NCBI GenBank assembly: GCA_049322215.1 | Contig: JBMORU010000001.1 | Span: forward strand, 969,759-1,033,758 | Reading direction: 5' to 3' | DNA: 64,000 nucleotides | From: Patescibacteria group bacterium | Lineage (GTDB): Bacteria > Patescibacteriota > WWE3 > UBA101185 > UBA10185 | In this document: piece after piece, positions 36,868 to 63,332 of the stretch | How positions within the stretch are numbered: the first letter of the stretch is position 1 | Layout: every line of letters begins with the position of its first letter | Notes under the pieces: generated by a model | What the model saw: only the letters and a program-made list of their open reading frames with translations | What the model was told of the DNA's origin: nothing | The model's database searches: none | Made by a program: the position numbers and the translations under genes

Positions 36868-37383
36868 TTAGAGTATTGTTAATGATGTGCCTATTTCATA
36901 AACGCCCGATGCATTGCCACCATCAGTGCTCATTAATGCTGCGTTATCAGGATGCTCTAAAACAGCGTTCAGTTCAAAATCAGTTCCGTCAGATGCATAT
37001 GTGTAAACATTTGTACCTGTGTTTTCCGGATCTAGGGGCAGCTTGGGCAAATAGTTAGATATACCAGTCATTCCTGTGGGAATTTGATATAAAACATAAC
37101 CTGTCCCATCTAGTACTTGGGTACCTGAACCACTATCACAAGTTGTGCATGTTGTAGTAGCTACTAATGTTGCTTCGCCTTCTGCTAAGGCTAGAGAAAT
37201 TCCTTGAAATAAAGAATCTAAATCACTCAAGCGACGTGCATCTCGGCTTTTTTGTAGTAGTGAAACAGGGTTTATTGCTACAACTATTACACCTGTTAGT
37301 ATAGAAATTATTGCTATTACAACCAAAAGTTCTACTAGAGTGAATCCTGTCGAGTTTTTTCTGTTTTTCAATTTAGTTTCCAT
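36868..37383 (-). CDS. type IV pilin (start revised to the ATG at 37383: METKLKNRKNSTGFTLVELLVVIAIISIL)
   Basis: Class III signal. Shares TTCTTCDSGSGTQV...LPLDP...YTYASDGTDFELNAVLE...DGGN..VYEIG..LTIL with the pilin at 44853. Confidence 0.65.
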   Translation of the reverse strand: METKLKNRKNSTGFTLVELLVVIAIISILTGVIVVAINPVSLLQKSRDARRLSDLDSLFQGISLALAEGEATLVATTTCTTCDSGSGTQVLDGTGYVLYQIPTGMTGISNYLPKLPLDPENTGTNVYTYASDGTDFELNAVLEHPDNAALMSTDGGNASGVYEIGTSLTIL

Positions 37384-37393
37384 AATGTGTATT

Positions 37394-38596
37394 CTATAAA
37401 CTACTTGTGATTTGGTAAATAGGCGTAATAATCGAAACAATCAAAAGACCTACCATACCACCAAGCATTAAAAGAATTATTGGTTCCAATGCAGAAGACA
37501 ATCCTTGTACAGCATGATCAGTTTCTCCACCAAAAAAATCTGCAACCTTATCTAGTACTTCATCTAGTTGACCTGTTTCTTCACCAACTGCCGCCATTTG
37601 ACCAAGGAGGGGAGGAAAAATTTTATTAGCTCTAAGGTACTCTGACAAAGCATTACCTTTTTCTACACTGTTGGCAGCTTCTATGGCAGCTCTTTTAATG
37701 GCACTGTTTTTTGCAGCACGCGCTACTATGTGTAAAGCTTCAACAATAGGAATTGCAGAAGCAACTAACAAGGATAACGTACGCGTAAATTCTGATAATT
37801 CTTTTTGTTTGTTTATTTTACCAAACACAGGGAGTGTAAAGGACAGTTTAGATAATAATTCTTTACCGCCCTCAGTTGCAACAAAAGTTTTTATTGCAAA
37901 TATTAAACCGGCAACTGCGACCAAAACTATATAATAGCGTTGTACAAACAAATCAGACACAGTGATCATAAATTTTGTAATAGGAGGTAAGTCTACATTT
38001 AAGCTCTCATACATGTCAGCTAGCTTTGGTATAACAAAAACCATCATTAAAACAAAAACACCTATCATAACCACAAATACTATCGCCGGATACACCATGG
38101 CTGCTTTAAATTTAGACCTAAGCTCCCGCTGTTTTTCCATAGTGTCGGCTAAACGTAAAAGTACTTCGTCTAACTTACCCGATGCCTCACCTGCCATAAC
38201 TAAAGACTGATATGTTTGGGGGAAAACCTTAGGATATCTTCCTAAAGCCGTTGACAACGAAGAACCGCCCTCAATGTCTCGAAGAGAATCCATAATTATT
38301 TTTTTCATTTTAGGATTAGGTGATTGCTCAGATAAAACTTCTAAGGCTCGTGAAATAGGCAAACCTGCCGAAATCATAGTAGAAAGCTGACGTGTGAAAG
38401 CAACTATATCATTATCAGGAACTCCGCGAATACTAGTTAATTGATCTAATATTGAGGTTCTTTTTTCTGTTAATGTTACAACAAATAAACCCTGATCTTT
38501 TAACAAGCTGACTGCCAATGCTTCAGTTCTAGCGTCAACTGTACCAGTACGAGACTGCCCTTTATTGTCACGTGCAGTATAAGTATAAATAGGCAT
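37394..38596 (-). CDS. pilC: type IV pilus inner-membrane platform protein PilC (GspF family)
   Basis: Two GspF repeats and 3 TM segments; 400 aa. Confidence 0.8.
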   Translation of the reverse strand: MPIYTYTARDNKGQSRTGTVDARTEALAVSLLKDQGLFVVTLTEKRTSILDQLTSIRGVPDNDIVAFTRQLSTMISAGLPISRALEVLSEQSPNPKMKKIIMDSLRDIEGGSSLSTALGRYPKVFPQTYQSLVMAGEASGKLDEVLLRLADTMEKQRELRSKFKAAMVYPAIVFVVMIGVFVLMMVFVIPKLADMYESLNVDLPPITKFMITVSDLFVQRYYIVLVAVAGLIFAIKTFVATEGGKELLSKLSFTLPVFGKINKQKELSEFTRTLSLLVASAIPIVEALHIVARAAKNSAIKRAAIEAANSVEKGNALSEYLRANKIFPPLLGQMAAVGEETGQLDEVLDKVADFFGGETDHAVQGLSSALEPIILLMLGGMVGLLIVSIITPIYQITSSL

Positions 38597-41541: not shown

Positions 41542-42207
41542 ATGCACGGATCTATTATGATTTTTGGCGGCAGCAGTGAAAAAAGACATCAATACGCTGA
41601 AAATTTATTAACTCAATTAAATTTAAAACTAAACGAAAACGAGGCAGATTTATTTGTTATTGATAAAACTGATGATAAAAAGAGTATAGGCATAGATTTT
41701 GCTAGAAGTGCAAAAAAGTTTATTAGCGAAAGGCCTTTAAAAGGCTCTACTAAGGCAATTGTAATAAAAAATGCGCATTTGTTAACAATACAAGCACAAA
41801 ATGCTTTACTTAAAACAATAGAAGAACCTCCCGCCTATGCAACCATATTGATTTTGGTTAAAAACGAAGACGCCTTACTTGAAACAATTGCTTCCCGCTG
41901 TAAAAGAATAAGCGTAGGCAAAGAAGATTTCATGCAAATAAATACTGCTGAAAGTGAAAAGTTTGACATAGTGAATTTACTAAACACTTCACCAGGTGAA
42001 AGAATTAGTTGGGTAGAAACATTTTCAAAACAAAATAAAGACGAAATAGTGCAAGAATTGGAAAACTGGATATTAACATTAAGAAAAACCCCCACTGTAA
42101 GAAACGCTAATAACATAAAAACCATCCAAAAGGTAAAAGCCGACTTAGAAAACATAAATATGAATACCAGACTTGCGCTTGAAATGCTAATGATAAACAT
42201 TGAGTGA
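41542..42207 (+). CDS. holB: DNA polymerase III delta-prime-like clamp-loader subunit
   Basis: QNALLKTIEEPP motif with a degenerate P-loop. Confidence 0.55.
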   Translation: MHGSIMIFGGSSEKRHQYAENLLTQLNLKLNENEADLFVIDKTDDKKSIGIDFARSAKKFISERPLKGSTKAIVIKNAHLLTIQAQNALLKTIEEPPAYATILILVKNEDALLETIASRCKRISVGKEDFMQINTAESEKFDIVNLLNTSPGERISWVETFSKQNKDEIVQELENWILTLRKTPTVRNANNIKTIQKVKADLENINMNTRLALEMLMINIE

Positions 42208-42304
42208 ATCTTCATTCTCGGTTAAAATAACTCAGCATACTAAAAGAGAATTTGTCTTAATGATAAGTTATGATAAAGTAAGCACTGTAAATTACTATTT
42301 TTAA

Positions 42305-44275
<1,971 letters not shown>

Positions 44276-44296
44276 TTGTACCTATACAATTAATAC

Positions 44297-44860
44297 ATGA
44301 GTGAAGGAATACCTCCATACGCTAATGAAATACATTCACTAATAGAACAACTTTCGGAAGAAGCCAAAAGACAAGAAATTTTAGATTTAGAGCCAAAAGA
44401 AGGAAAAAACAAGGTCAAAGCTTTAGTTTTTTGCGATGCTGGAAAAAACAGAAGCTTGATGATAGCAGATCAACTAAAAAAACGAGGATACGAAGCCAAT
44501 AACTACGGAACAGGTAACTCAAATCCTTTTGAACCCTCCGCTATAGAAAATTCCGGTTTTCAAGTAATTGTTTTTGCAGATGAAACCGTAGAAGAAAACT
44601 TTTATAAAATACTGGAGGCTACAGGACATACCGAATCACCTTTATTAAAATTACCAACTAGAACATTAGACATTAAAGAAAGTAATGGAATAAGAGGGTA
44701 TAGAAACTCAACAAATCCATTCAACAAGCAAAAAGAGGTTGAAAAGGTAGTAGGGGAAACTAATCAAAAGCTTGAAAATTTAGGCTTTGTAAATAAAAAT
44801 GCCGAAAAAATAGAATCATTAGTAAATGAGATGGAACTGGAGGAAAGAGAATATGCCTAA
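44297..44860 (+). CDS. low-molecular-weight phosphotyrosine-phosphatase-like protein (divergent)
   Basis: LVFCDAGKNRS contains a CX5R(S) P-loop, as in VCLGNICRS; about 45-aa N-terminal extension. Confidence 0.35.
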   Translation: MSEGIPPYANEIHSLIEQLSEEAKRQEILDLEPKEGKNKVKALVFCDAGKNRSLMIADQLKKRGYEANNYGTGNSNPFEPSAIENSGFQVIVFADETVEENFYKILEATGHTESPLLKLPTRTLDIKESNGIRGYRNSTNPFNKQKEVEKVVGETNQKLENLGFVNKNAEKIESLVNEMELEEREYA

Positions 44861-45371
44861 AAAACTTCGCAAAAGGTTGTACGTAGAAAAAGGTTTTACT
44901 TTACTAGAGCTTTTAATTGTAATCACGGTTATAAGTATATTAGCCTCACTTTTAGTTGTTGTACTCAATGCAGGAGAATATCTTGGAGCATCAAGAGATT
45001 CGCACAGAGTTACAGACTTAAATAAAGTGCAGTTGGCTATTACAAATGCTTTAACTGACAATGCAATAGAATTAACCGACACAACAGGATGTACAACATG
45101 TAACAGCCTAACCGGAACCACGGCTATAGATGGTACAGGTTGGGTACAATTTAACAATACAAGTGGCAATGGCTTATCAGGATTGTTATTTGTACTACCA
45201 GTTGACCCTACAAATGAAGGAAATCATGTATACAGATATTATTCAAATGGAACAGATTTTGAAATAAACGTTAACTTTGAATCTGAAAAATTCACAAATG
45301 AAAACGCAGTTTCAGATGGAGGAAACAATGATTCGGTATATGAAAAAGGCTGGGATTTAACAATTAACTAA
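44853..45371 (+). CDS. orphan type IV pilin (start revised to the second ATG: MPKKLRKRLYVEKGFTLLELLIVITVISIL)
   Basis: RBS GGAGG. Homologous to the pilin at 36868 (TTGCTTCNS...GTTAIDGTGWV...VDPTNEG...GTDFEINVNFE...DGGNNDSVYEKGWDLTIN). Confidence 0.65.
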   Translation: MPKKLRKRLYVEKGFTLLELLIVITVISILASLLVVVLNAGEYLGASRDSHRVTDLNKVQLAITNALTDNAIELTDTTGCTTCNSLTGTTAIDGTGWVQFNNTSGNGLSGLLFVLPVDPTNEGNHVYRYYSNGTDFEINVNFESEKFTNENAVSDGGNNDSVYEKGWDLTIN

Positions 45372-45376
45372 AAAAA

Positions 45377-45401
45377 TATCCCTACCTTTCGGTAGGGATA
45401 T
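45377..45401. terminator. bidirectional intrinsic terminator (ATATCCCTACC tttc GGTAGGGATAT) flanked by an A-run on one side and a T-rich tract on the other
   Basis: Perfect 11-bp stem between the convergent pilin and LPXTG genes. Confidence 0.65.
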
Positions 45402-45426
45402 TAAAAAGTCTACAAGTAAACTTTTT

Positions 45427-46683
45427 TTACTGTCTTTTCTTTAAGGCAAAACCGCTAGTTATAGATGTTAAGCCTAGCAAGGTTAACACTACAGTTGAAG
45501 TAGCACCTGTTCTAGGTAATTCTTCTATACTTAGCACTTCACCATTTTCGTAACATACCGTTGCGGTATCTGAAGCTTCTTCATTATCATCATATTTAGC
45601 TACAGCTTCATTAACTACACACTTACTAAAGTCAGTTCTGTCGTATTCTTCAGAGTTAACTTTAACAGTAATGTAAAAGGTTCTTTCTTCACCAGGTTTA
45701 AAGTTATCCCAATCTTCGGTTAAGTCACCTGAAAGCTTAGCTAACTCATCTGGTAAAAAATCGTGCATACGCATATTATCGAATTCTACATCGTCAACAT
45801 CACCTGAATCAGTGTTGTTTTTAACTACGATTCTAAACTCAACTTCATCATCTTCAGTAACACCGGTTACTTTATCTTTCCATGATTTGTCACCTTTAAT
45901 GCGAACTTTCTTCTCTATATCAAAGGATTTATTAACGATACAGTCACCACCACCATAAGAACATACAGGTTCTTCGGGTTCCTCTGGCTGTTCACACTCA
46001 GAAGCATTGTATGAAACAGTATGCTTTTCAGTGTCACCAGAGTTTACCTTAACTCTAAGTTCTACTTCACCTGAATCAATAGAAGTCAAATTTGTATCTA
46101 ACTTCCATGTTTCGGAATCTCCAGAATTCAAAGTACGTGTGTCACCAGTAATACCTGTTTGTTTGTCTTTAGGTGTAATTTCTACAACATAATTTGAATC
46201 ACTGTTATCATTATTTTTAACTTGAACGTTAATTACTACACTTTCTTCTTCGCATGCAACCTCAGCAGAATAGGTTATAGAACCTTCAGGCTCTTCTTCA
46301 CCTTTACAGTTTATAGCTTCATAAGATACTTTTCTTTTATCAGTACCCTTGTTGCCATTTGTCCAAGTTAAGTAAAATTCAACTTCACCGGCAGATACAC
46401 TATTTAAGCCTGTATCAATTTCCCAAATAGCTTCTTCACCGGGATTTACAGTTTTAGTATCTCCTGACACGCCAGACTGCAAATCTGTAGGTGTAACATC
46501 CATAGCAGCTTGAGAGTTCTTTTCAGTATTTTTAAAAGTCGCTTTAATGACTACAGAATTATCTGTACAAACAGCTTCAGCTTCTTGAGATGTTTTCCAT
46601 GCGTTAGTGCTATAAACAGGCATAAAGGCAACTGTAACGGCAACTAAAAGCATTGTCTTTGAAATATTTCTTTTAATATTCAT
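45427..46683 (-). CDS. LPXTG (LPRTG) sortase-anchored surface protein (start revised to the ATG at 46683: MNIKRNISKTMLLVAVTVAFMPV...)
   Basis: C-terminus LPRTGATSTVVLTLLGLTSITSGFALKKRQ is a sorting signal. The C-terminal roughly 190 aa are paralogous to the gene at 46846. The CTATAGGGTATAAT promoter is at about 46753-46766 (minus strand). Confidence 0.65.
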   Translation of the reverse strand: MNIKRNISKTMLLVAVTVAFMPVYSTNAWKTSQEAEAVCTDNSVVIKATFKNTEKNSQAAMDVTPTDLQSGVSGDTKTVNPGEEAIWEIDTGLNSVSAGEVEFYLTWTNGNKGTDKRKVSYEAINCKGEEEPEGSITYSAEVACEEESVVINVQVKNNDNSDSNYVVEITPKDKQTGITGDTRTLNSGDSETWKLDTNLTSIDSGEVELRVKVNSGDTEKHTVSYNASECEQPEEPEEPVCSYGGGDCIVNKSFDIEKKVRIKGDKSWKDKVTGVTEDDEVEFRIVVKNNTDSGDVDDVEFDNMRMHDFLPDELAKLSGDLTEDWDNFKPGEERTFYITVKVNSEEYDRTDFSKCVVNEAVAKYDDNEEASDTATVCYENGEVLSIEELPRTGATSTVVLTLLGLTSITSGFALKKRQ

Positions 46684-46792
46684 GGGGCAAGCCTCCAAAT
46701 TAATAAATACAAGTACAAAATAAGGATCCGAAGATCCTAAATATTCATTTATTATACCCTATAGTCACTACAGTGTCAAACTAGGACAAAAA

Positions 46793-46819
46793 GAGAAGGG
46801 CTCCGTAAGGAGCCCTTCT
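46793..46819 (-). terminator. intrinsic terminator (GAGAAGGGCTCC gtaa GGAGCCCTTCT + T-rich tract on the minus strand)
   Basis: Perfect stem 27 nt after the stop of the 46846 gene. Confidence 0.65.
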
Positions 46820-46845
46820 AAACATTAACTGTAACGTAGCTGACT

Positions 46846-47970
46846 TTACTTTCTTCTTTTCAAGGCATAACCACTAGTTATAGAGGTTAATCCCAGTAAG
46901 GTTAGTACTAATGTTGAAGCCGCACCTGTTTCAGGTAGTTCCTCAATGCCTAGTACATCTTCGGTGTCAGAATAACAAACGGTAGCCGTGTCAGAACCTT
47001 CTTCGGTTCCGTCATAAATCACTGTAGCCTCATTAACTACACACTTGTCAAAGTCAGATCTATCGTACTCATCAGGATCAACTCTTACTCTGATGATGAA
47101 AGTTCTTTCTTCACCAGGTTTAAAAGCATCCCAATCTTCAGTTAAGTCACCAGAAAGCTTAATTAGCTCATCTGGCAATATATCGTGCATTCTCATGTTA
47201 TCGAATGCAACACCATCAACATCGTTAGCGTCAGTTTTGTTTTTTACAACAACCCTAAACTCTACGACATCATCAAATTCAACATCAGTTACTTTATCTT
47301 TCCATTTTTTGTCACCCTCTATACGAACCTTTTTCTCTATATCAAATGACTTGTTAATGATACAGTTTTCACCACCTCCGTAGCCTCCACCGTAACCACC
47401 GTAGATACTACATGGGGTTTCTTCTGGATCATCTTCAGGTTCTGGCTCAGGTTCGTTAGCAGGACAGCTTATTTCATGATGTTGCGCAATACTGTCAGCA
47501 GCATAAAGCTTTAACTCTCCAGCTTTGGGCAAGGTGAATGAAGATTCAACCACCATACCTTGAGGGGACTCGTAAACAACTTCTCCATTAAGGTAAAACT
47601 TGTTTACACGTTCATCAACATCGTCGTCAATAAACACATAGCTGAATTCACATCCAGCAGGTAACTCCCCGAAATTCACCCATTCATGGAAGATTTTTGT
47701 GTAGGCTTCGGAGCTAGTCCAAACTCGTTCCTTACGTGTAGAAGTGTAAGTATCACTATCTACAGTATCAAAACGAAACGGATTAGTTCTTTTAACTACA
47801 AATACTTCATTAGAATCCTTTGTATAACTTGCACTACCTTCGCCCAAATACTGAGTTTCTGGTAAAGCAAAAGCCTCATTAAGAGGCATTATCCCAAGGG
47901 CTAAGATTGTCATAGCAACAACCTTAAGTGATTTATCAGAGAGCCTTGAAATGAATTTTATTAAGTTCAT
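46846..47970 (-). CDS. LPXTG (LPETG) sortase-anchored surface protein
   Basis: LPETGAASTLVLTLLGLTSITSGYALKRRK; GY/GG-rich segment; RBS AGGAAGGAG; a TATAAT next to CTATAGG lies upstream. Confidence 0.65.
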   Translation of the reverse strand: MNLIKFISRLSDKSLKVVAMTILALGIMPLNEAFALPETQYLGEGSASYTKDSNEVFVVKRTNPFRFDTVDSDTYTSTRKERVWTSSEAYTKIFHEWVNFGELPAGCEFSYVFIDDDVDERVNKFYLNGEVVYESPQGMVVESSFTLPKAGELKLYAADSIAQHHEISCPANEPEPEPEDDPEETPCSIYGGYGGGYGGGENCIINKSFDIEKKVRIEGDKKWKDKVTDVEFDDVVEFRVVVKNKTDANDVDGVAFDNMRMHDILPDELIKLSGDLTEDWDAFKPGEERTFIIRVRVDPDEYDRSDFDKCVVNEATVIYDGTEEGSDTATVCYSDTEDVLGIEELPETGAASTLVLTLLGLTSITSGYALKRRK

Positions 47971-48113
47971 TTAAGAACTCCTTCCTAGGTTTAAATTGTT
48001 AACCTATAGTAATTATAGGGGGAAAAGCAAAGTATGTCAAACGCTGAAACTAAACGCTTTGGGAGGGTTTATTAGTTGCTAAATATTAATAATAAATGTG
48101 ATAAACTACGATC

Positions 48114-48659
48114 ATGAAAAAGACAAACTCACACTTTCACACAATTCCGCAGGATAAAGCTCCTGAGGTCTTAAATTTAATTGTAGAAATTAAAAAAGGG
48201 GATATAAACAAATACGAATATAACCATGAGCTCGGAATCATAGAGCTAGATAGAGTGCTTTATGGACCAGTTCATTTTCCCGTTAATTATTGCGATGTAC
48301 CAAGAACATGGAATGAAGACGACGGCGATCCATTGGACGCTGTAGTTTTCACAAGTGGAAATTTAGTACCTGGGTGTATGGTAAAGGGTAGAGTAATTGG
48401 AGTTATGGAAATGGATGATAACGGCGAAAAAGATAACAAAATAATATGTGTGGCTAAAAAAGATCCCAGATTTAATCAAGTTAAACATGTAGATGACTTA
48501 AGAGAATACGAAAAGAAAGATTTAAAAACTTTCTTTGAAACATACAAGTATGCGCAAACGGGTCCAGGGACAGTAACAATCGGCGAATTTTTGGGACCTG
48601 AAGCAGCGTACAAGCTAATTAAAGACGCAATGGAAGCCTACGATAGACTTTTTGAATGA
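48114..48659 (+). CDS. ppa: inorganic pyrophosphatase (family I)
   Basis: DGDPLD and VIGVMEMDD motifs. Confidence 0.85.
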   Translation: MKKTNSHFHTIPQDKAPEVLNLIVEIKKGDINKYEYNHELGIIELDRVLYGPVHFPVNYCDVPRTWNEDDGDPLDAVVFTSGNLVPGCMVKGRVIGVMEMDDNGEKDNKIICVAKKDPRFNQVKHVDDLREYEKKDLKTFFETYKYAQTGPGTVTIGEFLGPEAAYKLIKDAMEAYDRLFE

Positions 48660-48688
48660 AAATAGCTGTATTAATTACTAGACTAGGA

Positions 48689-48717
48689 AAAACCGCGGTG
48701 GAAGCTGCGGTTTTTTT
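48689..48717 (+). terminator. intrinsic terminator (AAACCGC ... GCGGTTT + T7)
   Basis: Follows ppa. Confidence 0.55.
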
Positions 48718-48792
48718 ACAAAAAAGTCTAAAGTTTTTACACAAACACAACAATGTAAAAACCTTAGACCTGTAAACTACGCCGAATTACGG

Positions 48793-49245
48793 TTACAAAG
48801 GGGCACTAACGTGCAGTAGCAACATGCCCATTTCACCAATTGGCCACCAAGCCTCATCATGGCATACACGCCCTTTACCGCTGTCTTTTTCAGGGTTAAG
48901 CACCGTGTGTAAAAACTTTTCTTCATCTGCCATAGAGGTGGGCAATGTCAAAATAAGATCAACATTTGGACTGCTGCGCTGAGTGTGCTTCCACGAAAGC
49001 CAGTGCAAATTCGCTCTGCTTCTGGTAAACGCCAGGTCAGCAAGCCTACTTAAAAATCCAACCCTAATAGCTAATCTGCGCAAAAGCACAGGTAGGGGAC
49101 GTCGATCAACAACGGTTACACTAAGAAAACCTGCATCCTCAACGTAAAAATCATAAACAACTTGTCCAGGAATAGCCTTTTGTATACGCAGAAACGGCAA
49201 AAGACTCTTGTCTACCTTTAAACCCTCATATACTTTATTTCGCAT
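48793..49245 (-). CDS. hypothetical protein (150 aa), GC-rich
   Basis: RBS AAGGAGAGA. I counted about 52% GC in 48841-48900. CCTATAGTG lies upstream on the minus strand. Confidence 0.45.
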   Translation of the reverse strand: MRNKVYEGLKVDKSLLPFLRIQKAIPGQVVYDFYVEDAGFLSVTVVDRRPLPVLLRRLAIRVGFLSRLADLAFTRSRANLHWLSWKHTQRSSPNVDLILTLPTSMADEEKFLHTVLNPEKDSGKGRVCHDEAWWPIGEMGMLLLHVSAPL

Positions 49246-49365
49246 TTGTTCTCTCCTTATAGTTTTGATAAGTAGGGAAATCTTAACACACTATAGGATC
49301 ATATGCATCTAAAATATACGCAATCAATTGAGTATATTAATAAAAATTGATATCATAGCAACGCT

Positions 49366-51963
49366 ATGTCAAAAGAAGAGATAACAGCCCTAGATGCTTC
49401 AAACAATAAGCAAGAGGCAACAAACCTAATAAAAGCTGATATTACAACCGAAATGCAAAAAGCGTATTTGGATTACTCTATGAGTGTTATTGTCTCAAGA
49501 GCATTACCTGATGTACGCGACGGATTAAAACCTGTACACAGAAGAATAATATACGCAATGCAAGATCAAACTATGTACTACAACGGAAAGTATCATAAAT
49601 GTGCAGCCGTTGTAGGTGAAGTTTTAAAAAAGTACCATCCTCATAGCGACACCTCAGTATACGATGCTTTAGTTCGTATGGCGCAAAACTTTTCATTACG
49701 CTACACCTTAATAGATGGACAGGGTAACTTTGGAAGCATTGACGGAGATCCTCCTGCTGCTATGCGTTATACCGAATGTAAAATGGAACAACTAGCCGGA
49801 GAACTATACCGTGACATAGACAAAGATACTGTTGATTTTATGTTAAATGACCTCCAAAACGAAGAACCCGCAGTTTTGCCATCTGTTATACCAAACGTGT
49901 TGCTTAACGGAGCACAAGGTATTGCTGTAGGAATGGCAACTAATATTCCACCACATAATTTAAATGAACTTATAGATGGAATTAACCTTTTAATTGAAAA
50001 CTCAGATTATATAGGAGAAAAACCTGAAAAAGATACTAAACATGAATCAGAAGAAATAATTGCTAAAACAGGATTTTCATCTTCTGCAACTGTAGAAGAT
50101 TTAGTAAAAGTTGTAAAAGGACCTGACTTTCCAACGGGCGGAATAATTTATGATCAAAAAGAAATTATTCAAATGTATGCTACAGGTAAAGGAAGAATAG
50201 TAACCAGAGCAAAAATGGAAATTGAAGAAGACAAAAAGGGTAGAATGCGCATCATTGTTACCGAAATTCCATATCAAGTTAACAAATCCTCATTAATTGA
50301 AAAAATTGCAAAACTCGTTAGAGATAAAAAAATAACTGGCGTCGCAGATTTAAGAGATGAATCAAACAGAAAAGGTATGCGTATAGTTATTGAACTTAAA
50401 AAAGATGCCTTACCTAAAAAAGTACAAAACAGATTGTATAAACATACGCCCCTTCAAACATCATTCAATGCAAATATGGTTGCGCTTTTAGACGGTGAAC
50501 CAAAATTAATGACTTTGAAGGTAATTTTGGAAGAATTTATTAAACATCGCCAAATAGTTGTTGTTAGAAGAACAATATTTTTACTTAAAAAAGCACGAGC
50601 TCGTCAGCACATTTTACTGGGCTTAAAAATAGCATTAGATAATTTAGATGAAGTCATAAAACTTATTAGAAATAGTAAAGATACCGAGGTTGCTAAAACT
50701 GGACTTATGACAAAGTTTAAACTGACTGAAATACAGGCGCAAGCAATTTTAGACATGCAATTACGTCGTTTAGCCGCACTTGAAAGACAAAAAATAGAAG
50801 ACGAACTAAAGCAGATAACAGAAACCATCGAAGACTACGAGGATTTATTAATTTCACCAGAAAGAATCATGACTGTAGTAAAAGATGAGTTAACAGAGAT
50901 AAGAGAAAAGTATGGTGATGAAAGAAAAACTAAGGTTATTAAGAGCAAAGTAGGGGAGCTGTCTGACGAAGATTTAATAGTGAATGAAAGTTGCATAATT
51001 ACTATTTCTAGAAGTGGTTATATTAAAAGATTGAAACCTGATACTTACAAAAAACAAGGCCGCGGCGGAAAAGGCGTTAAAGGACAAGAACTCAGAGAAG
51101 AGGATATTGTAGACACAATTCGCATATGTAATACGCATGACTACGCACTATTCTTTACTAATAAAGGTAAGGTATATAAATTAAGGATTTGGGAAATACC
51201 AGAAACACTAAGAACTGCAAAAGGAACCGCATTAGTTAACTTTTTGGGCATTTCGCAAAGTGAAAATATACAAGCCTTTATATCGTTATCTGCAGAGCAA
51301 ATGGATGCTGAAGAAGGATTTATTGTATTTGGAACTGAAAAAGGAACAGTAAAGAAAACTTCCTTAGCAGATTTTGCTAATATAAGGTCTTCAGGAATTA
51401 TGGCAATTAAAATAGCTGACGGGGATGATCTTGTTAGAGTGTTACTAAGTGATGGGAAATCTGACGTTTTAATGGTTACAGCACAAGGGCAGTCTATAAG
51501 ATTTCCTGAGAAACAAATTAGAACAATGGGACGCACAGCTGGAGGAGTAATGGGTATAAAACTGGTTAAAGATGATGATCAAGTAGTTGGGATGGATTTA
51601 ATAGATGAGAACTCTACAAAAACATGCAGTTTATTTGTAGTAACCGAAAAAGGGAATGGTAAAAAAACACTAGTTACTGAATATAAAGCACAAAACAGAG
51701 GTGGTTCTGGTATTTTAACTTATAAAGTCACACCAAAAACCGGAAAAGTTAACACAGGAAGAATCATAGATAGCAGTGTAGAAATGGATATATTAATTGT
51801 TTCTTCATCAGGAAAAGTAATTCGACTTGATGAAAAGCAAATACCACAGTTAGGTAGAGCAACACAAGGTGTTAGATTAATATCATTAAGTGCATCTGAT
51901 AAAGTTTCCTCCACAGCAATTATTTCAGAAGAAGAGGAGCTTGAGAAAATAGAGAATGAATAG
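49366..51963 (+). CDS. gyrA: DNA gyrase subunit A
   Basis: AMRYTE(C) catalytic Tyr region, QGNFGSIDGD, and a C-terminal beta-pinwheel. Confidence 0.9.
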   Translation: MSKEEITALDASNNKQEATNLIKADITTEMQKAYLDYSMSVIVSRALPDVRDGLKPVHRRIIYAMQDQTMYYNGKYHKCAAVVGEVLKKYHPHSDTSVYDALVRMAQNFSLRYTLIDGQGNFGSIDGDPPAAMRYTECKMEQLAGELYRDIDKDTVDFMLNDLQNEEPAVLPSVIPNVLLNGAQGIAVGMATNIPPHNLNELIDGINLLIENSDYIGEKPEKDTKHESEEIIAKTGFSSSATVEDLVKVVKGPDFPTGGIIYDQKEIIQMYATGKGRIVTRAKMEIEEDKKGRMRIIVTEIPYQVNKSSLIEKIAKLVRDKKITGVADLRDESNRKGMRIVIELKKDALPKKVQNRLYKHTPLQTSFNANMVALLDGEPKLMTLKVILEEFIKHRQIVVVRRTIFLLKKARARQHILLGLKIALDNLDEVIKLIRNSKDTEVAKTGLMTKFKLTEIQAQAILDMQLRRLAALERQKIEDELKQITETIEDYEDLLISPERIMTVVKDELTEIREKYGDERKTKVIKSKVGELSDEDLIVNESCIITISRSGYIKRLKPDTYKKQGRGGKGVKGQELREEDIVDTIRICNTHDYALFFTNKGKVYKLRIWEIPETLRTAKGTALVNFLGISQSENIQAFISLSAEQMDAEEGFIVFGTEKGTVKKTSLADFANIRSSGIMAIKIADGDDLVRVLLSDGKSDVLMVTAQGQSIRFPEKQIRTMGRTAGGVMGIKLVKDDDQVVGMDLIDENSTKTCSLFVVTEKGNGKKTLVTEYKAQNRGGSGILTYKVTPKTGKVNTGRIIDSSVEMDILIVSSSGKVIRLDEKQIPQLGRATQGVRLISLSASDKVSSTAIISEEEELEKIENE

Positions 51964-55290: not shown

Positions 55291-55372
55291 GCAGAGTAGG
55301 GGAAATACGTCGTAAAATTTTTAAAAAGCGACGTTAAATCTCTTTTTTTTGAACATTTGGGTTTTAGTAAAG

Positions 55373-56359
55373 TTAAATTAAACTATTAATTTCGTCAGCA
55401 GTATCATCAACATCTTTATGAAACTTTGTGTGAATGTCTTTTAGCTGTTTATTTGTAACATGCGTATATATTTGGGTAGTAGACACATTAGAATGACCTA
55501 ATAGCTCTTGTACAGAACGTAAATCAGCACCCTCAGACAAAAGTCCGGTAGCAAATGTATGACGCAAAGTGTGTGGAGTAGCATCAATAGACAATCCGGC
55601 TCTAGTAACGTATTTTTTTATCATACGTTGCACACTTCTAGGCGTTAATCTTAAAGATTCGCCATCTTCATCACCAACTTCCATACGCTTGCCAGAATAA
55701 CGTAAGAATAAAGGTACGAAATTATCTCTACGCGTAGATAAGTAACGCTTTAACCAATCTTTAGCGCTAGGACTTAAATAAACTGTACGAACTTTTCGAC
55801 CTTTACCTACAACGGTAAATTCTCCTGAATTTAAATTTATGTCAGATACATCTAAATTTACTAATTCGCTTACACGTAACCCAGTGCTAAATAGGGTTTC
55901 AAGCATAGCTCTATCACGAATACCTGATTTCTTACTTAAATTTTGTGTTGAAAACAAGCCCTGCAATTGTTCTTCATTTAAAACTTTAGGAACACGTGCC
56001 TCTGGTTTACCTAAAATTATTTGTTCGGGGGATACTGTGTCTAAACCTAACTCCACCACAATGTATTTCAAAAAGGCACGAATTGCGACAAGAAATGTTT
56101 TTTGTGTAGATTTCTTGAATTCTTCATGCGATTTATTACTTATACGTCGGTTTAAATTTAAACGATACTTTCTAAGTAGTTCTTGATCAATATCGGATAC
56201 GTAAAAATCATCCTTCTTTAAATATGCCTTAGACCACTCAATAAAGTCATTTAAATAAAAATCGTACATACGAATTGTATTTTGAGAAAGGTTTTTTTCA
56301 ATTTCACAATGTTCTAAATAACGCGTAAGTAATTCTTTTAGAGATTTGGTCATAAACAT
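55373..56359 (-). CDS. tyrosine site-specific recombinase (XerC/XerD family)
   Basis: ...HTLRHTFATGLL...LLGHSNVSTTQIYTHV (R, H-x-x-R, and Y nucleophile). Confidence 0.8.
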   Translation of the reverse strand: MFMTKSLKELLTRYLEHCEIEKNLSQNTIRMYDFYLNDFIEWSKAYLKKDDFYVSDIDQELLRKYRLNLNRRISNKSHEEFKKSTQKTFLVAIRAFLKYIVVELGLDTVSPEQIILGKPEARVPKVLNEEQLQGLFSTQNLSKKSGIRDRAMLETLFSTGLRVSELVNLDVSDINLNSGEFTVVGKGRKVRTVYLSPSAKDWLKRYLSTRRDNFVPLFLRYSGKRMEVGDEDGESLRLTPRSVQRMIKKYVTRAGLSIDATPHTLRHTFATGLLSEGADLRSVQELLGHSNVSTTQIYTHVTNKQLKDIHTKFHKDVDDTADEINSLI

Positions 56360-56767
56360 ATGTTAACAAGAGTTAGAAAATTTTCAAACATAGAACATAG
56401 ATTATGCAAGTTTAAGATTTTGTAGACCTAGCATTAAAATTTACTCATTACATGTGATGCATAAGTCAACTAAAAAATAAAAATTGCTTACAGGGCATTC
56501 TAGAGCCTCACACCCATTATTTACTGTCACAACAACAAATAGTAAGAATCAGCATGTTTAAAACTGCTAAAAATGTAATGAAATAAAAAAAGACAAGTGA
56601 GGTATATACGCAAGAAATGAAAATGCGGCATTAAACGTTGAATAGAGTAGCTGCGCCGCAAACTAAAAATAAATTAACATACAATTAAACAAAAATTTGT
56701 TTGGTATTAAAAAGTAAATTAATTTGGATCAAATTATAGGGAACAGGTTAGAATATTAAAAAATACA

Positions 56768-56797
56768 AGACGTCGTATAATGTATGTTTAACGACGC
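56768..56797. other. candidate dif-like Xer recombination site: 11-bp arm ACGTCGTATAA, 6-bp spacer TGTATG, 11-bp arm TTTAACGACGC
   Basis: Imperfect palindrome (8 of 11 arm positions match). The core CGTATAATGTATGTT matches the E. coli dif core CGCATAATGTATATT (from memory) at 13 of 15 positions. It lies about 410 bp upstream of the xer gene. Confidence 0.4.
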
Positions 56798-57010
56798 CGA
56801 GGATTTATATGTATTGCAAGCACATAGATTCAACTGAATAGGGAGGCTTAATGGGATCACTCTATTAAAGCAGTTAATTTAGAAGAATTAATTATGTATT
56901 AATAAGTATTATTTATAGCTATTTATTTATTAATTCAGTTTTTATTTACGGCTTAGTAAAATTAATTCTTACTTGAGTACAAATTAAGTTATGCACAATT
57001 AACTTGAAAA

Positions 57011-57092
57011 GTATGACAACCCTCCCCTAGCCAAAGTATGACAACATAAACTATGACATTCTTACTTAAATTGCTTAACTAACTATGACAAC
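57011..57092. repeat. four direct repeats of TATGACA(A/T)(C/T): three copies TATGACAAC and one TATGACATT, at irregular spacing; iteron/operator-like
   Basis: Copies at 57011, 57036, 57051 and 57084, in the 840-bp AT-rich non-coding region. Confidence 0.4.
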
Positions 57093-57110
57093 ATTACAAC
57101 AAGCATTAGT

Positions 57111-57125
57111 GTAATAATACTATAG
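57111..57125 (-). promoter_or_regulatory. CCTATAGTATTAT promoter-like element on the minus strand (12 of 13 identical to the CCTATAGTATAAT motif), pointing into the non-coding region toward xer
   Basis: Reverse complement of TAATAATACTATAGG. Confidence 0.35.
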
Positions 57126-57197
57126 GTATTAGCAAATATAACTATGGGGTGTTAACAGCACTAGCACTTCCCTGCCTTCAGTTTTAGTCCTGTTTGT

Positions 57198-57992
57198 TTA
57201 AGGCTTAAATACAAGCAATAGTAGTAAAAATAATACTGTTACTAAAGAATATTCAAAAACAAATCTATTTGTTATTTTATTTTTTAAATGGGCTTGTAAG
57301 TAACCAATTCCCGACATCAAAATTGACGCATCAAACATTGCTAACAAAAAAGATTCTGTAGGTATAAATGAAACACTGATGCTCAAGGAAAAGACAACGA
57401 AGGAAACTAAGAAACTACCTATTAGTACGTCCCCTATTTTAAATACTTTAGAATCTTCATCAAAGCGTTGCGACCAAAAAGTGTAAACACTAAATAAAAA
57501 AGTTGAGCCACTAATAATTAAACTCTGGAAAACTGAGATTATAGGTACTTTAAAGATACCTGCAAAATAGGGAATACATACAACTACTATTAATATTTGG
57601 CTCCAGGTAACAGCGACTCTATATAAGGGAATGAGCTCGTTTTTTTGCTGCACAACAAGAAATATATTATTCATTAACGCAATAGCGTATGTAATTACAA
57701 ATAAAGCCCCCAGTGCCCCTACAACTACAAGTTTGCTTAAGTTTGGAAAAAACACTAAGGATAATAACGCCCCGATTACCGCATGAATATGTAAAAGTAT
57801 TACAGGTAAAGTGAGTTTAAAGCTGTTTATTGGTAAATGAATTAATACCCCACCTAAAACACAAAAAAGCAAAGACCCAACAAGAAAATAAAGACGCAAC
57901 TCCCCTGCTACAAAAGAAAAAAAATACAACAGAACAACCTGCACTAAAGCATATATAGAATATTTAACTTTTTTTGATATGACAAAACTCAT
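57198..57992 (-). CDS. polytopic membrane protein, hypothetical
   Basis: About 8 hydrophobic helices. It overlaps ruvC by 4 nt, indicating an operon. Confidence 0.5.
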   Translation of the reverse strand: MSFVISKKVKYSIYALVQVVLLYFFSFVAGELRLYFLVGSLLFCVLGGVLIHLPINSFKLTLPVILLHIHAVIGALLSLVFFPNLSKLVVVGALGALFVITYAIALMNNIFLVVQQKNELIPLYRVAVTWSQILIVVVCIPYFAGIFKVPIISVFQSLIISGSTFLFSVYTFWSQRFDEDSKVFKIGDVLIGSFLVSFVVFSLSISVSFIPTESFLLAMFDASILMSGIGYLQAHLKNKITNRFVFEYSLVTVLFLLLLLVFKP

Positions 57993-58511: not shown

Positions 58512-59066
58512 CTAGTTTAAATACTTGTCTGGTATATCAAAATTAGCATATACCTCTTGCACATCATCTTGATCTTCAAGCAAATCTATAATTCGTAGTA
58601 AAGTTTTTGCTTGAGACGGGTCTTCTACGGGAATTTCAAAACTTGGCTCCCCTGTTATGACATCAAAAATATAGGCAGTACTACCTGCTTCACCTAAAGA
58701 GCCTCCATTTTTGTTAAATATGGTTCTTATTTCTGCTACTGTTCTATTTTTGTTATCAGTGAGTGCCGATACATAAAAAGCCACTCCCCCAGGGCCATAC
58801 CCTTCATAAGAGACTTCAATAAAAGCGGCGCCATTACCTGCACCTAAACCTTTTTGAATAGCTTTTTCAATATTATCTTTTGGCATACTGGCCTTTTTTG
58901 CCTTATCAACAGCTAAACGCAACCTTGGATTTGCATCTATGTCTCCCCCACCCTCTTTAGCAGCCACAGATATTAAACGACTCATTTTAGAAAAAACTTT
59001 GCTTTTTTTTGCATCGTTCGCATTTTTTGTTCTTTGAATGTTTTTCCATTTAGAATGTCCTGCCAT
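58512..59066 (-). CDS. yebC: YebC/PmpR-family transcriptional regulator (short, 184 aa)
   Basis: [12 protein letters not shown]-terminus; yebC-ruvC synteny. Confidence 0.8.
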
Positions 59067-60770: not shown

Positions 60771-63332
60771 TCATTTGGAATGCCCAGTACTTTTCTCTGT
60801 TTCCATGGCTTTTCGTGCTTTATGCTCTTGGGAGATAGCTAAACCTTTATCGAACTGTCTATCTACCCAACGACGTATTCTTTCCTCTACAATGCGTCTA
60901 TCTGTACCGTAGTTTTGTCTACTTAGTTGAAGAGCACGTTCTCTGTTGGTAGCAGATCTAGGTACAAACGGTGGAACAGACTTTGCAGAAAAAGGCAAAG
61001 AAGTTGTTCCATTAATTACCATCTTAATATACATATTATACTTATCCAATGAAATTATATCGTTTGGAGTAAATTGAGGTGCAAACTCATTTGCAAGCAA
61101 TCGGGCATCACTCGCACCTAACCCAAAGGCAGCAATTGTTCCAACATTACCTAACACAGCACTCAATAAATAATCAGGAAGCTGAGATGTATATTGATGC
61201 GTTAGGTACAAACCTAGCTTATATTTACGTGACTCTGACAAAATAGACTCAAAACTACCTGTAGCAAAGTTTTGAAACTCGTCTACATATAAGTAAAATT
61301 CTCTTCTTTGTTCTGGGGCTAATTTTGCTCTTTGCAAGGCCATAAATTGAATTCTAGATACTAATAAGGCACCTAACAAATTGGCATTATCTTCACCTAC
61401 TTTACCTTTTGATAAATTTAGCAAAAGTATTTTTCCTGTATTCATGGCGTCCCAAATGTTAATTGTGGATTTTGGTTGACCCAATATATTTCGAATGGTT
61501 GTGGAAGCTAGAAATCTGTTTATTTTATTTTGTATGGGGGCAACCGCTTCTGTAGCTAATTTAGCATTCCCTCGCATAGCTGCGTACTCCTTTTCCCAAA
61601 ACTCCAAAACAACTGGGTCTTTTATATAGTGAAGAATATATTTTTGATAGTTCATGTCTCCAAGTAGGCGTGTAATAGAAAGCATGGTTGTGCCTGGGAC
61701 CTCAAGCAAAGTCAAAATAGCATAGTTTAACAAGTATTCTAACCTGGGTCCCCAGGAATATTCAAAGTGCACTTTAATTGCCGAAACAAGAGCAGATGCC
61801 ATTAAGTTTTTTTGTGACTGATCCTCTATTTCAAGTAAGTTAATTCCCACAGGATACGCAGTGTCAGAAGGATCAACTATTATTACATCTTTTAATCTGT
61901 GATCAGGAATATATTCCAAAACGTGGTCTATTAATTCGCCGTGTGGATCTAATACACCAACACCAAAACCATTATATATATCTTGCGTAATCATTGTTTC
62001 AAACAATGTCGACTTACCTACACCGGTTTTACCAATTAAATACATATGCCTTAAACGATCTCCCGTTGTATTATCTATACCAAAGGCAATACTCTGGCCT
62101 CTGTATGTAGTACGCCCAATATAGCAACAGTTTTCCGTTGGTAGATGTGAAGGGGGCTCCCCTTTTTTAGAATAAATCCATGACATATTAGGAGTTTCTA
62201 CATTAGATGTAGGCAAATGAAATATAGAAGCCATTTCAGTAATGTTTAATACATAACTGTTTTCCGTACTAAAAGTACGCGCCTTATATTTTTCAAAAGC
62301 CAATGAATTACTTACCTCATGATTAGTAATAAAGCTATTTAAGTTAGATGTGGAAAACTGGCGCATCGAGGCAGAAAAAGACCTTACTAGGTTTTTTGAA
62401 CGCTCCTGAGAATTAGAAGAAGCCAAAATTCTTATACTTACCTCAAAACCCATTTTCTCTAGCTTTGTTTCTATTGCTTCTACCATAACTTCTTCGGAAC
62501 CGGTTAGCTCTGGTTTCTCTGGAGCACTAGGGCCGGAAGACTGCTTACTACCTAAACCACTATCAGCAGAACTTCCAGCCAAAGCATCCGCAATTCCTCC
62601 AACTACGGCATATGTTAATGTTAAAAGTAAATCCAAAACAAAATCTAAAACATTGAAACCTTTTCTTTTTGATACAGCTTTTCCTGTAAGTAATTCTTTC
62701 ACATAATCGTAACCTTCTTCTTGCCAAACATCTGCAATTGGCCGTACAAGTAATTGTAACCACACAGTTTCCCCTTCTTCGGCCTCAGATAAAGCAGAAG
62801 TTAATGCAGCTAATGGGTCTACTTCAAAATCTCTAAATGTCTTTATAGGAAATATTTGGTTTTTTAATAAATTCATGTGAGCAACTTCAAATTTTTTATC
62901 TATAGGCTCAATGGCGTAGTCATCTACACGTTCGATGTGCGCTTCAGGGTATTGTGCATAAATTTGGCTTTCTACAAATTTATAAATGTGTCTAGGAACA
63001 ACAGCAAAAAATCTAATACCTTTAGCGTCTGAAGTTATTTCAAAAGTAAAGTGTTCTTGAACACCTGCATCTTCTCGCAACAATCCGTGCAAAGAAGCAA
63101 ACATCTGTTCTGCGGCAATAGGGGCTGTTTTGGTTACACCAATTTCAGGCATATCGCTCCAGGGAACCTGTATTTGAAGAAACACAGGATCATCAATTTT
63201 TTCTTCAACTATAGGTGTATCTTTTCTTTTTTTGGCTAAAACTAAAACTACGACAATTACTGCCACTAATGGGATAACAAGTAAAAAAGGTAAAATGGGC
63301 TGTAAAGAATTAAATATCTGATTAAAATTCAT
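60771..63332 (-). CDS. VirD4/TraG/TraD-like (type IV coupling protein-like) P-loop ATPase with an N-terminal TM and about 400-aa unknown domain (start revised to the ATG at 63332)
   Basis: Walker A LIGKTGVGKST. Walker B / TraG-D_C-like FYLYVDEFQNF. Perfect SD AAGGAGGTG 9 nt upstream. The listed start at 63344 is GTG. Confidence 0.6.
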   Translation of the reverse strand: MNFNQIFNSLQPILPFLLVIPLVAVIVVVLVLAKKRKDTPIVEEKIDDPVFLQIQVPWSDMPEIGVTKTAPIAAEQMFASLHGLLREDAGVQEHFTFEITSDAKGIRFFAVVPRHIYKFVESQIYAQYPEAHIERVDDYAIEPIDKKFEVAHMNLLKNQIFPIKTFRDFEVDPLAALTSALSEAEEGETVWLQLLVRPIADVWQEEGYDYVKELLTGKAVSKRKGFNVLDFVLDLLLTLTYAVVGGIADALAGSSADSGLGSKQSSGPSAPEKPELTGSEEVMVEAIETKLEKMGFEVSIRILASSNSQERSKNLVRSFSASMRQFSTSNLNSFITNHEVSNSLAFEKYKARTFSTENSYVLNITEMASIFHLPTSNVETPNMSWIYSKKGEPPSHLPTENCCYIGRTTYRGQSIAFGIDNTTGDRLRHMYLIGKTGVGKSTLFETMITQDIYNGFGVGVLDPHGELIDHVLEYIPDHRLKDVIIVDPSDTAYPVGINLLEIEDQSQKNLMASALVSAIKVHFEYSWGPRLEYLLNYAILTLLEVPGTTMLSITRLLGDMNYQKYILHYIKDPVVLEFWEKEYAAMRGNAKLATEAVAPIQNKINRFLASTTIRNILGQPKSTINIWDAMNTGKILLLNLSKGKVGEDNANLLGALLVSRIQFMALQRAKLAPEQRREFYLYVDEFQNFATGSFESILSESRKYKLGLYLTHQYTSQLPDYLLSAVLGNVGTIAAFGLGASDARLLANEFAPQFTPNDIISLDKYNMYIKMVINGTTSLPFSAKSVPPFVPRSATNRERALQLSRQNYGTDRRIVEERIRRWVDRQFDKGLAISQEHKARKAMETEKSTGHSK

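Follow-up and report, generated by a model that had tools for sequence, protein, structure and literature searches.

What is the function of a long, AT-rich gap immediately upstream of the gene for a tyrosine recombinase, and could it hold the site at which that recombinase resolves chromosome dimers? The question is raised by a 64,000-nt stretch of contig JBMORU010000001.1, referred to here as “the window”, from a bacterium of candidate division WWE3 (Katanobacteria), part of the Patescibacteria or candidate phyla radiation (CPR). Positions 56360–57197 of the window form an 838-nt non-coding gap between a membrane-protein gene and the recombinase gene, xer, both on the minus strand. Orthologues of the recombinase are 68–77% identical within WWE3, including that of the closed RAAC2 genome (CP006914.1). 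An initial annotation of the gap described an AT-rich leader containing a palindrome that resembles dif, the chromosomal site of Xer recombination. The AT-rich character is evident, with a GC content of 29% in the gap versus ~36% for the whole window. Here, we describe what can be learned about the palindrome, its genomic setting, and its possible roles. We consider it likely that positions 56770–56797 are the chromosomal dif of WWE3, accompanied by a gene-linked, probably single, Xer and by guide words resembling FtsK orienting polar sequences (KOPS). The two elements in question are as follows.

56770–56797: dif-like core site, consisting of left arm ACGTCGTATAA (56770–56780), centre TGTATG (56781–56786), and right arm TTTAACGACGC (56787–56797).

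55373–56359, minus strand: xer gene, encoding a 328-aa tyrosine recombinase of the XerC/XerD/XerA type in which all catalytic residues are present.

The core site has the layout of dif in XerCD systems, i.e., 28 bp with two 11-bp arms around a 6-bp centre. This 11-6-11 architecture had been recognized at the outset and is real, although the site had been given as 56768–56797, with a start two bases too early. Complementarity between the arms extends to 8 of 11 positions overall and to 6 of the 7 outer ones. The outer arms consist of ACGTCGT and its complement, the inner arms are unequal (TATAA versus TTAAA), and the right arm repeats the left in inverted form. The asymmetric centre TGTATG and the ATAA inner arm are common to the site and bacterial dif. 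For comparison, we used the E. coli and B. subtilis dif sequences, as confirmed in Kono et al. 2011 (PMC3025954). The 13-of-15 match to the E. coli dif core in the initial annotation holds, in register (CGTATAATGTATGTT versus CGCATAATGTATATT), and the full 28 bp match E. coli dif at 14 positions. As evidence by itself, this likeness is not statistically meaningful: simulated sequences of the window's size typically hold a 28-mer matching E. coli dif at ~19 positions, and a match of at least 13/15 to the E. coli 15-mer arises in 21 of 100 shuffles. Palindromes are also common, with 145 examples of the 11-6-11 form and at least 8/11 complementarity in the window, four of them in this spacer. The core site itself is unique within the window (expected number, 0). 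Considered within this one sequence, both the palindrome and its likeness to dif are within chance, and it is only comparative data that show the site to be non-random.

To obtain such data independently of the site, 22 WWE3 loci were fetched by means of the recombinase protein alone, 20 of which have enough upstream flank. The first 26 nt of the site are extremely conserved, with 0–1 mismatch in 17 of the 20 genomes, three changes in two genomes, and seven changes in one; the last 2 nt are variable. The DNA flanking this 26-nt core cannot be aligned across WWE3 genomes, and the neighbouring proteins are 33–64% identical, versus the 68–77% of Xer. Lack of conservation of the palindrome in relatives had been named beforehand as an outcome that speaks against a dif site; the opposite was found. 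An exact 24-mer scan of 241 million metagenome records gave the same picture. The 24-mer occurs in 85 metagenome contigs, with one copy in each. Among the 80 contigs examined, 66 have enough downstream flank, and in 65 of these, xer lies downstream in the same orientation, at a distance of 214–2368 nt (median 390). Similarly, the site adjoins xer in 20 of 20 genomes, always on the same strand relative to the gene. A recombinase gene beside its own dif-like site, the arrangement to which the initial annotation drew attention, is thus maintained across the WWE3 clade together with the sequence of the site.

A sharply bounded invariant block with an asymmetric centre and unequal inner arms has the signature of a directional protein site. 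The block is not an RNA, because there are no Rfam or tRNA matches and the fold is weak. More specifically, an RNA gene or riboswitch in the spacer was considered and ruled out: no Rfam family reaches its gathering score in the window, the spacer yields only two chance-level matches (E ~6–7), no tRNA or tmRNA is found, and the fold of the site is no better than that of shuffled sequences (z −1.4). The term “leader” is unsupported for the gap, which lacks a convincing promoter or terminator (none above background), any Rfam or tRNA match, and any conserved sequence between the site and xer. The DNA on the xer side of the site is as follows.

56360–56769: 410-nt, AT-rich spacer from the site to the xer start codon, with no motif conserved across the clade (no conserved k-mers were found there across clade loci).

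Individual WWE3 genomes show variations on this organization. In one (L010), the site has the E. coli centre TGTATA; in another (L043), both inner arms read TTAAA. In a third (L071, 4335–6744), two extra genes of 430 and 88 aa, on the opposite strand, lie between the site and xer, with no second site. Outside WWE3, a search for equivalent sites beside the xer genes of Peregrini-, Gracili-, and Doudnabacteria (45% identity) found only the promoter-like sequence ATCCCGTACAAT. This sequence is present in most Peregrinibacteria and Gracilibacteria loci (L022–L035), 40–110 nt 5′ of xer (~280 nt in one case and ~730 nt in another), and resembles a promoter element of the extended −10 type.

That the site is the junction of the two chromosome arms, in the sense of dif, is most strongly supported by the polarity of the hexamer AGGGGA. 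We ranked all k-mers by the extent to which they point toward the site from both sides, with the window extended to 73 kb; the full span for polarity is 82 kb (−9,187 to 73,332; the window plus loci L054 and L146), with 66 kb to the left of the site and 16 kb to the right. AGGGGA is the top hexamer for site-directed polarity (z 5.7). To the left of the site, copies on the plus and minus strands stand at 22:1 in the 73-kb stretch, and at 26:2 when 9 kb is added on the left; to the right, the ratio is 0:13 over 16 kb. The best cut falls at 55.5–57.0 kb, with 35 of 36 words pointing inward. The hexamer is 2-fold over-represented, with one copy per 2 kb. The polarity switch is bracketed by the following two words.

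55298–55303, plus strand: last inward AGGGGA to the left of the site.

57023–57028, minus strand: first inward AGGGGA to the right of the site (TCCCCT on the plus strand), matched in other genomes by a conserved TAGGG(G/A)AG that closely follows the stop codon of the membrane-protein gene.

The polarity of AGGGGA is not an effect of ribosome binding or of the coding strand, because it flips within minus-strand genes: the words inside such genes stand at 7:1 to the left of the site and 0:12 to the right (Fisher's exact p ~7e-5, obtained using 13 right-hand words instead of 12). The same pattern is seen in 87 other dereplicated WWE3 loci, with ratios of 183:36 upstream and 13:214 downstream. It extends to non-coding DNA, where the ratio across loci is 51:12 for the stretch from the membrane-protein gene to the site, and 0:46 for the spacer that leads from the site to xer; in many other genomes, this spacer carries one or two inward words. 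Inside xer, AGGGGA is mostly antisense (6:19), although xer shares its orientation with the upstream genes. Nolivos et al. 2012 (PMC3384302), in identifying the L. lactis KOPS, applied to dif regions a skew of at least 90% and a frequency of at least one word per 40 kb; the values for AGGGGA lie within both limits. Converging polar guide words, as seen in XerCD/dif systems, are therefore found at the site both here and in the 87 other loci. We suggest that AGGGGA is a candidate KOPS-like guide word, read by a DNA translocase.

The recombinase is of a type consistent with such a role. It has a Phage_integrase domain (2.7e-44) and a SAM-like N domain, and its scores fall below the cut-offs of all of the specific models: 254 bits for XerC (equivalog cut-off 335), 252 bits for XerD (equivalog cut-off 330), and 213 bits for archaeal XerA (cut-off 220). 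Among solved structures, the closest are E. coli XerD (2e-44) and Pyrococcus abyssi XerA (1e-41). The catalytic set is intact, with the Arg, Lys, His-x-x-Arg, His, and Tyr residues all visible in structure-sequence alignments. The initial annotation had likened the locus to XerS/difSL and XerH/difH. The protein argues otherwise, since it is closest to XerD, XerC, and archaeal XerA, and what is shared with the XerS and XerH systems is only the arrangement of gene beside site. The XerS model (NF003462) gives 133 bits against a cut-off of 267, and only for the C-terminal half, while the match to the XerH structure (1e-16) covers the catalytic domain only.

One further feature of the protein bears on the architecture of the site. 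Its “TPRS” aligns with “TRQT” of XerD and “SPKT” of XerA. Cortez et al. 2010 (PMC2958812) assigned the XRX form of this DNA-binding motif to XerC; the motif here, PRS, is of the XRX form and not the XKX form of archaeal XerA. An XerC-type motif fits both the likeness of the site to the XerC half of dif and the fact that the right arm copies the left. There is one tyrosine recombinase gene in the window, and none beside xer in ~100 related loci; motif scans of the window and of all fetched loci found no second xer, no dnaA, and no ftsK. Because both outer arms are alike, the system is most likely a single-recombinase system, like archaeal XerA/dif, rather than one with an XerC/XerD pair. From the symmetry of the arms, we infer that one protein occupies both.

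A possible mechanism can be outlined on this basis. The recombinase encoded by the adjacent xer would bind both 11-bp arms and exchange strands across the 6-bp centre, and strand exchange at the site would turn chromosome dimers into monomers. A single recombinase would act, as in archaeal XerA/dif, in place of the XerC/XerD pair. AGGGGA, which faces the site on both chromosome arms, would guide the DNA translocase that brings two copies of dif together. On this view, the site would be both bound and recombined by Xer, and the locus would be the replication terminus.

Several observations weigh against this proposal. (i) The right arm matches the conserved XerD-binding arm (TTATGTTAAAT-like) at only 3 of 11 positions. 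(ii) The “RQ-QQ” residues with which XerD contacts FtsK are replaced in the recombinase. (iii) In one genome (L006, 3684–3709), a degenerate site, changed at 7 of 26 positions, lies beside an intact xer. (iv) At 50-nt resolution, the AGGGGA switch in some genomes falls 100–150 nt to the side of the site away from xer, where a repeat array (see below) is located. (v) Strand composition does not switch at the site. To separate gene-strand from replication-strand effects, we considered 4-fold degenerate sites over the local range, from −66 to +16 kb. On the plus strand of the window, A is in excess over T throughout the 82 kb, whichever way the genes are oriented, and no change-point is seen (likelihood ratio [LR] <2). 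G/C at 4-fold sites is mostly a coding-strand effect; its LR at the site is 2.6, which is not significant, and the best G/C change-point is at 13.5–18 kb (LR 13.5), ~40 kb from the site. Pooled WWE3 loci likewise have no composition switch at the site. Mutational asymmetry is expected to reverse at a terminus or an origin; since there is no change-point, there is no such reversal at the site, despite genes that converge on the locus. The suggestion that GC skew might identify the locus as the terminus was followed within the local range, and no shift in composition was seen at the site there.

Two published observations are relevant to this point. First, Kono et al. (PMC3025954) reported that dif and the shift point of the skew need not coincide, and used a tolerance of 5%. 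Second, Kadnikov et al. 2020 (PMC7143001) described monotonic GC skew along the whole chromosome in three other Microgenomates lineages, and proposed that the origin lies next to the terminus or that replication is of a unidirectional theta type. In the closed RAAC2 genome, the site is at 456.3 of 878.1 kb (52%), counted from a record start that is unverified; the paper describing that genome states nothing on origin or skew.

One alternative, which we regard as unlikely, is that the locus serves as origin and terminus at once, rather than as a classical terminus. The role of the palindrome as dif would not change, and the DNA beside it would be a plasmid-like origin that fires in one direction, so that the fork travels round the chromosome and ends beside the same spot, with origin and dif in one intergenic region of ~800 bp. 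The relevant DNA is a conserved, ordered module that separates the membrane-protein gene from the site, lying ~130–450 nt from the latter and on its far side with respect to xer. Reading toward the site, the module consists of an inward AGGGGA, sometimes one or two copies of ACTATAGGGT, repeats of GTAnnnTTGTCATAnTTT, a single GGGG-TGTGGATAAC, ~200 nt of AT-rich DNA, and the site. Its main elements in the window are as follows.

57012–57092, minus strand: iteron-like direct-repeat array, with TTGTCATA on the xer-sense strand and the consensus GTAnnnTTGTCATAnTTT.

56989–56997, minus strand: DnaA-box-like 9-mer, TGTGCATAA on the xer-sense strand, one mismatch from TGTGGATAA.

56798–56988: AT-rich spacer of ~190 nt from the core site to the DnaA-box-like element.

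The repeats in the window read TATGACAA at 57012, 57037, and 57084, with the variant TATGACATT at 57052. Across loci, there are two to four direct copies of GTAnnnTTGTCATAnTTT. The TTGTCATA array is present in 62 of 64 loci, with 160 copies in the forward orientation and none in reverse, and the distribution of distances between copies peaks at 23–25 nt (a phase of ~24 nt). TATGACAAC, tried as a genome-wide word, was rejected, as a scan of the window placed its exact copies in this spacer only. The sequence TGTGGATAA is the canonical DnaA box; it is perfect in 56 of 64 loci, single-copy, and always forward, typically 24–28 nt after the last TTGTCATA (most often 26 nt) and at a median of −219 nt from the site. 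The stretch from box to site has a mean GC content of 0.31 (72 loci). The element ACTATAGGGT occurs as one or two copies in about half of loci and is degenerate in this window (57110–57160, and equivalent positions elsewhere). It resembles the initiation region of the T7 promoter, which is probably a coincidence.

Iteron-type plasmid origins consist of phased iterons, a DnaA box, and AT-rich DNA. In favour of the combined reading is an oriented array with 23- to 25-nt phasing, followed by a DnaA box and then AT-rich DNA, in an order kept in ~60 of 64 loci. The box is also strongly concentrated here: across 631 kb of WWE3 loci, the 9-mer occurs 70 times in this place and 3 times outside it. The uniform A/T asymmetry across the site, over 82 kb, is as unidirectional replication predicts, and the same arrangement has been proposed for other Microgenomates (PMC7143001). 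An origin next to dif would reconcile an asymmetry that does not reverse with a guide word that does. If it existed, AGGGGA would direct a translocase to dif from either side, the A/T asymmetry would reflect a single strand acting as the leading strand at all times, and the module would provide a sequence-level handle on the monotonic skew of other Microgenomates.

However, the comparison with oriC and iteron-type origins is incomplete: although an iteron-like array, a DnaA box, and AT-rich DNA are all present, there is only a single box, with no initiator gene or dnaA nearby. In the genome of this window, that box is mismatched; no perfect DnaA box is found anywhere in the window, and one-mismatch copies occur at chance level. 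G/C at neutral sites is not uniform, and in closed RAAC2, there is little strand asymmetry around the site. Nor does the locus resemble a bidirectional origin, for which a composition switch and diverging genes are expected; there is no switch, and the genes converge. Phased repeat arrays are also found at partition sites, in regulatory regions, and in the accessory regions of recombination sites. The array may have other functions: it could provide accessory sites that impose selectivity on resolution, as at the plasmid sites cer and psi, or it could be a one-sided fork barrier or take part in the regulation of xer.

A second alternative, which we consider quite improbable, is that the palindrome is an operator for xer, bound by a transcription factor or by an autorepressing Xer, with no recombination. 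The palindrome does lie in non-coding DNA 5′ of a linked gene, and the nearby repeats could be further operator sites. Nevertheless, the 6-bp centre is asymmetric and the inner arms differ from each other, yet these parts vary no more than the outer arms do, an unusual pattern for the site of a dimeric repressor; the site lies anywhere from 214 to 2368 nt from the start codon, with two genes inserted in between in one genome; and an operator leaves the reversal of a genome-scale polar word unexplained. Lastly, the site might serve recombination of another purpose, as an attachment site for integrating elements or as the end of an invertible or excisable segment. Integration and inversion are common roles of tyrosine recombinases whose sites are adjacent, and in one genome, 2.4 kb of extra genes separate the site from xer. 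We regard such a role as very improbable, given that each of 85 contigs holds a single copy, with neither a second nor a half copy within 4–14 kb, that 2.9 million viral contigs gave no match, and that synteny with the housekeeping genes ruvC, yebC, IMPDH, and RNase HII is fixed across the clade.

The closest analogue of this module is archaeal XerA/dif, described by Cortez et al. 2010 (PMC2958812) for Pyrococcus abyssi. That system has one recombinase resembling XerC and XerD, along with a 28-bp, 11-6-11 site with near-symmetric arms; WWE3 is alike, probably with a single recombinase. Archaeal dif is single-copy, conserved among relatives, and shares about half of its positions with bacterial dif, as does the WWE3 site. 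It also has conserved flanking sequences and short polar words that point inward, and was found by the same comparative logic (PMC2958812). In Sulfolobus, dif is near xerA, similar to the linkage in WWE3, whereas in Thermococcales, the gene is not always beside the site (PMC2958812). There are also clear differences: the WWE3 protein is bacterial, scores slightly better with the XerC and XerD models, and has XRX rather than XKX; the polar word is a G-rich hexamer rather than GTTG; and an iteron-like array and DnaA box lie alongside.

Other systems share fewer features with WWE3. In XerS/difSL of streptococci and lactococci (PMC1914069, PMC5357621), gene and site likewise form one module; one recombinase acts alone, and a guide word particular to the lineage, GAAGAAG (1 per 2.1 kb), converges at the site. 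However, difSL is 31 bp with an 11-bp centre, as opposed to the 6-bp centre in WWE3, and it is immediately adjacent to xerS, whereas the WWE3 site and gene are ~390 nt apart. XerH/difH of Helicobacter and Campylobacter (PMC3325230, PMC5241119) also has a single recombinase encoded near the site, but the arms of difH (AGTTATGAAAA and others) are unrelated to those of WWE3. The XerCD/dif system of E. coli and most bacteria, with FtsK and KOPS, resembles WWE3 in its 28-bp, 11-6-11 layout, its ATAA-TGTAT core, and a G-rich guide word that reverses at the site. By contrast, the WWE3 arms are alike, the right arm is not an XerD arm, the gene is linked to the site, the FtsK-contact residues are absent, and local skew does not reverse. 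For the array alone, the comparison is with the plasmid Xer sites cer and psi (PMC5357621) and with iteron-type origins, where phased repeats, a DnaA box, and AT-rich DNA lie beside a site of multimer resolution. Unlike these, the WWE3 array is chromosomal, conserved across a clade, and has one DnaA box.

Two other sequences in the window resemble dif or the core site, and both were rejected. The first, at 37375–37402 (AGTTTCCATAATGTGTATTCTATAAACT), agrees with B. subtilis dif in 22 of 28 positions, including 10 of 11 in the XerD arm (p ~0.007 by simulation). It spans the pilC stop codon and the start codon of a pilin gene, and two other WWE3 lineages lack it at this junction; given this lack of conservation, its resemblance to dif is due to chance. 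No canonical dif was found near the site within ~1 Mb of related loci. The second, at 55307–55334 (ACGTCGT-N14-GCGACGT), has outer arms like those of the site and is not conserved in 54 loci. It lies where the IMPDH and xer genes converge, forms a hairpin with a T-run after it, and is probably a bidirectional terminator.

The gene neighbourhood is fixed across WWE3 loci, in the order YebC-(RuvC)-membrane protein-[spacer with site]-xer-(IMPDH)-RNase HII. The gene bounding the spacer on the side away from xer is as follows.

57198–57992, minus strand: upstream neighbour, encoding a conserved 264-aa polytopic membrane protein without a family match.

The YebC/PmpR homologue (58512–59066, minus strand) has 184 aa, the first 135 of which match a family profile of ~240 residues, so that its C-terminal part appears shortened. 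Further along, 60771–63332 (minus strand) encode an 853-aa, membrane-anchored P-loop ATPase with DUF8128, HerA/DUF87, and TrwB/TraD-like regions and no solved relative by sequence. The gene is kept 4–5 kb from the site in most WWE3 loci. This HerA/TrwB-like protein was considered as a stand-in for FtsK and rejected: neither an FtsK nor a gamma-domain signal is present, and the protein probably serves as a coupling protein in type IV secretion. Beyond xer in the other direction, a 21-kb type IV pilus operon (20533–41513, minus strand) encodes assembly ATPases, PilC, several pilins, and a prepilin peptidase, as well as two proteins of ~1000 aa without a family match. Adjoining it are holB, gyrB, and gyrA (41542–51963, plus strand), and dnaB is ~13 kb beyond the other side of the site (L054, 2745–4100). 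Replication genes thus cluster around the locus, with dnaA not among them.

In a full-text literature search, we found no paper linking dif, Xer, or KOPS with CPR, Patescibacteria, or Saccharibacteria. For these organisms, the locus supplies a concrete 28-bp candidate site, an XerC/D-type recombinase that apparently works alone, as in archaea, and a candidate guide word, AGGGGA. The site may serve as a fixed landmark by which WWE3 genome assemblies can be oriented and checked. Finally, with a guide word that reverses at the site set against a strand asymmetry that does not and an array that looks like an origin, whether these small genomes replicate bidirectionally or unidirectionally would become a testable question.

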